Below, piece after piece: positions 2,702 through 3,975 of a stretch of DNA of 64,000 nucleotides. Origin of the DNA: Escherichia phage vB_Eco-B1.1; sequence record ON871820, one strand, 5' to 3'. The position numbers were made by a program, and so were the translations under genes. The notes beneath the pieces were generated by a model that did no database searches, was not told the origin of the DNA, and was given only the letters and a program-made list of their open reading frames with translations. How positions within the stretch are numbered: position 1 is the first letter of the stretch; every line of letters starts with the position of its first letter.

Positions 2702-3091
2702 ATGACTAAAATTACTGTGAATTATACTGTTGATGTAAAAGATATTCAGCCAAAACACGTGCGTTCTGAATCAAATCCACAAAACCAAAATAAAATTCGT
2801 CGAGCATGGGTTTTGTCTCTTTCTGATAATGCAATGGAAGTTATTCAGAACAAAATTAAATCTGCACCTGCTCGTCATGCGTATTATGAAGCTATCGATC
2901 GTGAAGTAAGTAATAAATGGATTGAACTAATGCGCAAACATACTGCAGAATCCCTAAACGCCGGTGCTAAATTTATTATGACTTCATGTGGTGAACGCCT
3001 TGAAGATGATTATTGCGGTAATGCAGATGAACGTCTAATTGTTGCTGCTCAAATTGTTGCGGAAACAATTGCGGCTGATTTTAATAAATGA
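2702..3091 (+). CDS. rpbA: RNA polymerase binding protein RpbA
   Basis: 129 aa, position between 46 and 45 as in T4; length matches recalled RpbA. Confidence 0.65.
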
Positions 3092-3975
3092 ATTTAGTAT
3101 ATCTTATTAGCTTTCCAGAACGGGAAGCTAAAAATATTTTTCCATGTTATTATATAGGTTCGAAAATTGACGCAATTTTCGATGGAACAAATATAATTGA
3201 TTCAGCTGGAAAGATTTATACTGGAAGCGTGTCATCGAGTTATAGCGATGAATATTTTGAGCTTATTAAAACCACTAAATATACCGTCAAAATTTTAGCT
3301 GAAACTATATTAGATCCAAGAAAATTGGAAAGATTTTTTCAATTAAAAGTTAAAGCAAAAAGTAATATAAAATATTTTAATAAAGCATACGCAGATGAAA
3401 ATACTTTAATTGGCGCTAAAGGATATGGAATATATAAAAATGTTTTAACTGGAAAAATTGTAAAGCTTTCGCAATCTGAAATTACGCCCGATTATGTTGG
3501 TATTCGTAAAGGTTACAAACATAGTTCTGACGTAAAATACAAAATATCTAATTCAATGAAGAATCACTGGACCGATGAGAAAAAGCTTAAACTTTCAAAT
3601 AAGATGAAATTGAAATATCTTGATTGTAGTTATGCTAAAAAGTTTAGTGATATAATGAATTCAGAAAGTGTAAAATCAAAAATTTCTAAATCTCAAAAAG
3701 AGTTATGGAATAATGCTGAAAGAAGACAGAGAGCTTCAATTCAAGCAACTGTTAGAAATAATTCACCGGAATTCAAATCAAAATTTAGAAAATCTAAAGC
3801 TAGAGGAACTTGGATTGAACATGAAGATGAATTAAAATCTTTATGGCATGCTTACGGAAAACCGAGTTATAATAAATTTCGTAAAATTGCAGTAGCTAAT
3901 GGGTTTAACGACGAATCTTATCAGGGTGCTGTACGGTCCTGGTCTAACTATTATGTAAATAGGAAATTGAAATGA
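3088..3975 (+). CDS. GIY-YIG-like (Seg-family) putative homing endonuclease
   Basis: N-terminal LVYLIS...(10)...YYIGS fits GIY-x10-YIG; NUMOD-like repeats; C-terminal module shared with the HNH ORFs; ATGA overlaps with rpbA stop and with 45 start. Confidence 0.5.

Follow-up and report, generated by a model that had tools for sequence, protein, structure and literature searches.

The DNA considered here is a 64,000-nt stretch (hereafter the window) of Escherichia phage vB_Eco-B1.1 (ON871820), whose closest database phages belong to Tequatrovirus, with ~96-97% identity over the 25 kb compared. A T4-type replication and recombination cluster on the + strand fills the first 9 kb of the window, and between two of its genes, rpbA and gene 45, lies an open reading frame (ORF) encoding a protein of 295 amino acids (aa). 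Judging from sequence comparison and a structural model, this ORF is very probably a free-standing homing endonuclease gene of the seg type, SegG-like and apparently with a GIY-YIG-type fold, which has invaded the rpbA-45 spacer in a minority of T-even-type phages. The genes at the locus are as follows.

766-2448, + strand: gene 46
2504-2692, + strand: 45.2
2702-3091, + strand: rpbA, RNA polymerase binding protein (Pfam Phage_RpbA, 6e-42)
3086-3960 (end approximate), + strand: inserted segment relative to T4, T2 and T6 (junctions compared with T4, SH7, FL12, ESh32, slur03, RPN226, T2 and T6)
3088-3975, + strand: putative seg-like free-standing homing endonuclease ORF, 295 aa
3972-4658, + strand: gene 45, sliding clamp (Pfam gp45-slide_C, 1.6e-51; DNA_PPF, 7.2e-33)
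3' of gene 45, in this order, + strand: genes 44, 62, regA and 43

The initial annotation drew attention to the two borders of the ORF, where it reported an ATGA overlap on the rpbA stop and another on the gene 45 start, and both are real as read from the junction letters. At the left junction, TTTAATAAATGAATTTAG, the rpbA stop TGA (3089-3091) overlaps the ATG of the seg-like ORF (3088-3090), and these letters also read as AATAAATGAATT; at the right junction, AAATTGAAATGAAATTA, which also reads as TTGAAATGAAAT, the stop TGA of the ORF (3973-3975) overlaps the ATG of gene 45 (3972-3974). The seg-like ORF is the sole ORF of the window with a 4-nt overlap on each side. However, such overlaps occur at 8 of the 79 junctions between adjacent + strand ORFs in the window, and the right-hand TGA lies within the ATGAAA with which gene 45 itself starts in every allele examined. 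As this TGA belongs to the conserved ATGAAA, any ORF entering in that frame would end at the gene 45 start, and the right-hand overlap is automatic. The ATGA overlaps by themselves are thus not beyond chance and not diagnostic, and the double overlap was dropped as evidence of invasion.

The distribution of the ORF among related phages bears on its origin. In T4, rpbA (32659-33048) and gene 45 (31917-32603) are adjacent, in line with the initial annotation, and are separated by 55 nt with no ORF between them; the comparison with T2 and T6 that it suggested gave a 55-nt spacer identical to that of T4 and again no ORF. The two flanking genes had been called essential, which holds for gene 45 but not for rpbA, as rpbA is not essential in T4. 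When the window from 2500 to 4700 was used in a megablast search (at least 95% identity), the seg-like ORF was found in 24 of ~504 Tequatrovirus records, corresponding to ~20 distinct phages, one cultured carrier being Bas45 PaulHMueller, and the remaining Tequatrovirus records matched as two pieces that leave out the ORF. Orthologues at the same rpbA/45 site were present in 10 of ~154 Mosigvirus records (FL31, AV115 and others) and in 3 of the 38 records matching at the Gaprivervirus level (2 phages, TH15 and VR26), and metagenomic T4-like contigs, including L016, also have an orthologue there. Overall, a seg-like gene occupies rpbA/45 in about 5% of T4-like phages. A scan of IMG/VR for relatives yielded no confirmed locus. 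In GenBank the gene is mostly labelled 'hypothetical protein', with a few entries as 'putative homing endonuclease' or DNA endonuclease. The same-site orthologues of Mosigvirus, Gaprivervirus and the metagenome are of 55-60% protein identity, and all of them keep the ATGA overlap on the gene 45 side. The left junction is variable: the window has ATGA, TH15 has GTGA, L016 has TAATG, and a gap of 5 nt separates the two genes in FL31.

The gene is present in some phages and absent from others at a single precise site, in three genera and a metagenomic lineage, and this polymorphism is the first ground on which we favor invasion. The same orthologues might also be expected if the gene were ancestral to the Tevenvirinae at rpbA/45 and had been deleted from most lineages, and their 55-60% identity is close to the divergence between genera. 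Such a history is very unlikely in our view, as the empty sites in each genus are intact, conserved spacers with a promoter and a ribosome-binding site and no deletion scars, the carriers amount to ~5% of the records per genus and are scattered, and the synonymous divergence of the seg gene is no larger than that of its flanks. A further point against it is that derived Ser AGY and Arg CGT codons at the start of gene 45 are common to the Mosigvirus and Gaprivervirus carriers and absent from the empty alleles of their own genera, which fits transfer of a cassette.

At an empty site, rpbA ends in CGTTAA (codon CGT and stop TAA) and is followed by the 55-nt spacer; the insert stands in place of these six nucleotides and of the initial ~45 nt of that spacer. 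In the window, the insert itself provides the end of rpbA, AAA TGA (3086-3091). When 6 occupied and 6 empty Tequatrovirus genomes were compared, the only fixed differences in the left flank were at positions -6, -5, -4 and -2 from the rpbA end, and no fixed occupied-versus-empty flank difference was found in these 12 genomes beyond the last codon and stop of rpbA. Some variation of other kinds was observed around the insert. In the last ~30 nt of rpbA, just 5' of the seg start, 4 of the 6 seg-carrying genomes (L002, L012, L014 and L015 compared) each had 3 substitutions within 19 nt (window 3061-3079), and the 6 empty genomes had 1 substitution; a GAT to GAG change in PaulHMueller, GRNsp7 and EC121 puts GAG, possibly a weak ribosome-binding site, ~9 nt ahead of the seg ATG. 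On the other side, the spacer between genes 45 and 44 (window 4659-4710) differs in length from that of the other Tequatrovirus genomes compared, and the right-flank alignments run out of register ~700 nt past the gene 45 start.

The second ground is the protein itself, with its homology to T4 SegG and its apparent GIY-YIG-like fold. Three regions can be recognized in it.

3088-3387, + strand: N-terminal GIY-YIG-like nuclease domain, residues 1-100
3511-3561, + strand: degenerate NUMOD3-like motif in the linker, residues 142-158 (Pfam NUMOD3, E 0.68)
3526-3957, + strand: all-helical C-terminal region, residues ~147-290, presumed DNA-binding module (helices with predicted local distance difference test scores, pLDDT, of 50-79)

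The 295-aa protein matched the PHROG homing-endonuclease families 655 (7e-32) and 7504 (4e-17), and T4 SegG was 36% identical to it over residues 1-115 (E 1e-8; tblastn, 2.3 Gb). Residues were compared in 8 aligned sequences, T4 SegG included, and Y5, Y21-Y22-I23-G24-S25-K26, K42, Y44, S47, E81 and Y96-F97-N98 were invariant in the clade and SegG. The 'GIY' strand with its Tyr is present as LVYLI, with Y5 invariant (strand 2-8 of the model), and the 'YIG' strand as Y21-Y22-I23-G24-S25 (model strand 21-26), the two motifs being spaced by 17 residues, compared with the usual 10-11. The counterpart of the metal-binding Glu (E75 of I-TevI) is E81, located in helix 77-87 after strand 66-73, and that of the Asn (N90 of I-TevI) is found in Y96-F97-N98, 17 residues past E81, with ~15 expected. 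The N-terminal 100 residues of the AlphaFold model had pLDDT values of 80-94, and the I-TevI catalytic domain was the top structural match by two methods, with modest scores.

The third ground is that the ORF is under purifying selection and is occasionally found broken. The ratio of nonsynonymous to synonymous substitution rates (dN/dS) was 0.09-0.30 across the whole ORF in 5 intact Tequatrovirus copies, similar to that of rpbA, and indicates a functional protein under purifying selection. Five of the 6 Tequatrovirus copies compared were intact; that of EC121 is broken (889 nt, with a frameshift after codon 19; L015 3189-4077), and the Mosigvirus AV115 copy is split and annotated as two coding sequences (L006 2501-3395). 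These breaks are either real decay or sequencing errors. The occurrence of intact and broken copies fits the cycle of invasion and decay predicted for homing endonuclease genes.

The fourth ground lies within gene 45, whose first ~30 nt are recoded and appear to travel with the insert.

3978-4004, + strand: nt 7-33 of gene 45, recoded and linked to the insert (substitution clustering)

One carrier was compared with one typical empty genome per genus, and the differences in gene 45 were concentrated in its first 36 nt, which held 13 of the 26 differences between the window and T4 (binomial P 1e-10), 13 of 17 between FL31 and mogra in Mosigvirus (binomial P 4e-14) and 8 of 26 between TH15 and VR20 in Gaprivervirus (binomial P 4e-5). 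In Mosigvirus, full-length matches to nt 1-90 of the carrier gene 45, at 97.8% identity or more, were found in 10 records, which are exactly the 10 carriers, and the empty-site records listed align to the carrier gene 45 from nt 27 on only. In Tequatrovirus, all 6 carriers compared have TTA and GAC at codons 3 and 6 of gene 45, and markers farther off are mosaic, a pattern consistent with preferential inheritance with co-conversion. Taken together, we infer that the recoded tract is a candidate recognition or cleavage site made resistant, a co-conversion tract, or both, and that the recognition and cleavage site may be located at the spacer and gene 45 start.

Several expression signals overlap the insert and were considered with respect to how seg and gene 45 might be read.

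3107-3131, + strand: hairpin with a 10-bp stem and 5-nt loop, then AAAATATTTTT, 19 nt into the seg ORF (terminator-like scan)
3849-3873, + strand: middle-promoter-like motif inside the seg 3' end, TGCTTAC (MotA-box-like), 12 nt, TATAAT (pattern scan)
3961-3964, + strand: AGGA, the Shine-Dalgarno of gene 45, which also encodes part of the conserved C-terminal NRKxK of the seg ORF

The initial annotation had proposed that translational coupling was restored on both flanks. The 20 nt preceding the seg ATG contain no Shine-Dalgarno sequence, and the overlap on the rpbA side plausibly serves as termination-reinitiation coupling. On the other side, AGGAAA is common to the window and the T4 spacer (GAAGGAAATTAC), gene 45 has its own Shine-Dalgarno and its own ATGA, and coupling there is probably incidental, so this half of the proposal is not retained. 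By pattern scan, a good pair of MotA box and -10 element, TGCTTTA-12 nt-TAAAAT, is present in the T4 spacer and is deleted by the insert, and the T4 middle promoter Pm45 has been mapped by primer extension (PMC6024815). The distance from the start of the middle-promoter-like motif inside seg to the gene 45 ATG is 123 nt, and FL31, TH15 and L016 have the motif with this spacing too; across these sequences synonymous positions are conserved within both elements of the motif and the codons in the spacer between them vary. This motif is a candidate replacement for the displaced Pm45. Embedded replacement promoters have been described for segG and others in the Edgell review, where segG holds the displaced promoter of its downstream host gene in its ORF (PMC2988022), and the same is proposed for the gene of the window. 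As for the hairpin near the seg start, the RNA fold of 3040-3150 had an energy of -24.6 kcal/mol (z -2.0); a different 9-bp hairpin lies at a similar position in TH15, and FL31 has a weak one only. It possibly attenuates seg transcription or translation and limits seg expression. No RNA family was matched by Rfam in window 2000-5000.

A number of results weigh against reading the ORF as a seg-type homing endonuclease gene with a target at gene 45. There is no invariant Arg at residues 27-65 of the clade to match R27 of I-TevI, a residue on which characterised GIY-YIG enzymes depend for catalysis; of the basic residues near the missing position, K26 and K42 alone are invariant, and the KQKR segment of SegG lines up with SDEY in the 295-aa protein. 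Foldseek with the isolated N-terminal domain placed I-TevI first at template modelling (TM) scores of 0.51/0.59, but with E 0.7, and gave nothing significant with the full-length model. Neither the 295-aa protein nor its relatives matched Pfam GIY-YIG (PF01541) at E <= 5, an NCBIfam scan of the protein gave no match, and a profile of the N-terminal domain found no GIY-YIG match among Protein Data Bank sequences. An hhalign comparison of this profile with I-TevI residues 1-99 had a probability of 8.5%, and it paired GKIYTGS (41-47) with KVYVGS of I-TevI, an alternative register to YIG at 21-25. The promoter motif could have been kept by protein-coding constraint and AT-rich codon usage. Finally, ~50 Tequatrovirus empty-site records (including FL12, ESh32 and slur03) have most of the recoded gene 45 tract and RPN226 has nearly all of it; since empty-site records share it, the recoded tract alone cannot mark the target, and it was dropped as a strict marker of Tequatrovirus carriers. 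These empty-site alleles may be resistant, may be former carriers or may represent the ancestral background.

PF01541 also misses T4 SegG at E <= 5, and its failure here is therefore a property of the divergent clade. The initial annotation of the ORF as GIY-YIG-like, with endonuclease motifs to be expected on profile search, was partly borne out, by the PHROG families, by the identity with SegG and by I-TevI as top structural match, but not by Pfam or NCBIfam, and the catalytic Arg is not conserved. We class it as a SegG-like protein of GIY-YIG-type fold in which one of the canonical catalytic residues is not accounted for. The absence of a conserved Arg at the R27 position and of a GIY-YIG profile match, the broken copies in EC121 and AV115, and the gene 45 Shine-Dalgarno and promoter-like motif within the ORF would all be understandable if the gene were an inactive or decaying relic, no longer homing and kept because its deletion would remove the promoter and ribosome-binding region of gene 45. 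We regard this as unlikely, given that dN/dS is within the range of rpbA over the whole ORF, that most Tequatrovirus copies compared are intact, and that the catalytic-type residues Y5, Y22, E81 and N98 are invariant across relatives of 30-60% identity and T4 SegG; moreover, 295 intact codons would be needless if the gene were kept for a promoter and ribosome-binding site alone.

A role beneficial to the host phage might also be considered, in which the gene encodes a domesticated DNA-binding or exclusion protein that, for example, cuts or blocks competitor phages without spreading itself. Protective genes derived from homing endonuclease genes are known in other phages (PMC10448857), and SegB has recently been linked to anti-defence amplification (PMC13096335). 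The 295-aa protein matched none of the PADLOC defence-system models, however, and the sporadic 5% distribution with broken copies better fits a selfish life cycle; in addition, marker exclusion and homing are two faces of one activity in the T4 seg genes (PMC2988022). Domestication thus appears highly improbable, and the suggestion of homing endonuclease invasion made in the initial annotation gains support from the small share of carriers among close relatives, the kinship with SegG and the apparent GIY-YIG-like fold.

Considering all the above results, a plausible model for a homing seg gene at rpbA/45 can be outlined. In a mixed infection, the protein would cut the seg-less allele at or near the spacer and gene 45 start, and T4 recombination-dependent replication would mend the break with the seg-carrying genome as template, so that the seg gene is copied in along with the adjacent recoded start of gene 45. 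Loss of the spacer and recoding of the gene 45 start would protect the carrier. Expression of seg would be low, and, with no Shine-Dalgarno before its start, its translation would occur by reinitiation after rpbA. The MotA-box/-10 motif inside the seg 3' end would probably restore middle-mode transcription of gene 45, and such an embedded promoter would make deletion of seg costly. A more specific version, which we put forward only tentatively, is that the mobile unit is a cassette in which seg is combined with signals for gene 45, namely a built-in MotA-dependent promoter and a ribosome-binding site, and with the recoded first ~10 clamp codons, perhaps moved among Tequatrovirus, Mosigvirus and Gaprivervirus, and encoding an Arg-less GIY-YIG active site that uses Lys26 or Lys42. 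If true, this would be a natural homing element that, at each homing, rewrites an essential replication protein in both its regulation and its N-terminus.

Among known systems, T4 SegG (gene 32.1, between genes 59 and 32) is the closest characterised relative of the nuclease domain, with YYIGSK, GK.Y, E and YFN common to both. Like the gene of the window, segG is free-standing, lies just 5' of an essential replication gene and is a promoter-less cassette on a polycistronic message. The two differ in site (59/32 versus rpbA/45) and in length (210 aa for SegG versus 295 aa), and their C-terminal halves are different, with no alignment past ~residue 115; the KQKR segment of SegG has no counterpart with a basic residue in the clade of the window. 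SegG cuts far from its insertion site, 332 bp away, whereas the polymorphism linked to the gene of the window lies no more than ~30 nt from the insert. For free-standing endonucleases, the distance between cleavage and insertion sites is hundreds to thousands of bp, and the twelve sites listed for those of T4 do not include rpbA/45 (PMC2988022). A literature search for a named seg gene at rpbA/45 found none. As far as can be read from the sequence, the gene is SegG-like in every respect. I-TevI, from the T4 td intron, resembles the protein in its arrangement of N-terminal nuclease, linker and C-terminal DNA-binding region (presumed in the window protein), and it cuts near its insertion point, as the window protein would if the gene 45 start were its target. 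In contrast to the gene of the window, I-TevI is intron-encoded, and no sequence similarity is detectable between the two proteins; the window protein has an insertion of ~25 residues between the YIG strand and the next helix, has no R27 equivalent that could be found, and lacks the zinc finger of I-TevI, its C-terminus being a terminal three-helix bundle.

The C-terminal helical region had no significant structural match, and NUMOD3 was matched at a lenient cutoff in 4 of the 8 aligned sequences (best 1.3e-8). A related module was found in a second endonuclease-like gene of the window.

1-750, + strand: HNH-type homing-endonuclease-like ORF, the 3' 750 nt of 855 with the 5' end cut by the window start, directly 5' of gene 46

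The C-terminal region (3526-3957) is 27% identical over 193 aa to the C-terminus of this ORF (~190-740; E 2e-11, BLASTP), and PHROG 655 covers most of both proteins. Homology of this module extends to the T4 mob-type HNH endonucleases and the T6 HNH ORF 5' of gene 46, which have PHROG 655 in common with the window protein, share its sporadic intergenic life style and, in the same replication-gene cluster, combine the module with an HNH catalytic domain instead of a GIY-YIG-like one. The module is presumably DNA-binding, and its presence on GIY-YIG-like and HNH nucleases amounts to domain shuffling within one genome. The window HNH ORF is identical at 248 of 249 positions to the T6 ORF at the same place, and an HNH ORF is also found 5' of gene 46 in N2, GRNsp7 and EC121; in the regions compared, G10400 and PaulHMueller have two small ORFs just 5' of gene 46 and no HNH ORF. 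Together with the seg-like gene, the HNH ORF flanks the 46-45.2-rpbA block. Between gene 46 and 45.2, N2 (L013 1827-2543, - strand) and FL31 (L004 1081-1797, - strand) have a third endonuclease gene (HNH), which is encoded on the other strand, and the window is without it. The replication-gene cluster is a hot spot for endonuclease genes. On the metagenome contig k141_1106302 (L018 1531-3899), a 35%-identical relative of the seg-like protein (P0005, with NUMOD3) is flanked by two ORFs, one of 304 aa with a RecA_N domain and one of 184 aa with the C-terminal domain of T4 UvsX, and uvsX appears to be split in two by the seg-like gene there.

The locus offers a compact test system, as both alleles exist in cultured phages, occupied in Bas45 PaulHMueller and empty in T4, T2 and T6, and it also provides a predicted target beside the insert, candidate resistant empty alleles (FL12, ESh32 and slur03) and an embedded candidate promoter for an essential gene. 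The current understanding of homing is unchanged by these results, and rpbA/45 would be added as an occupied site to the T-even-type map of free-standing homing endonuclease genes.
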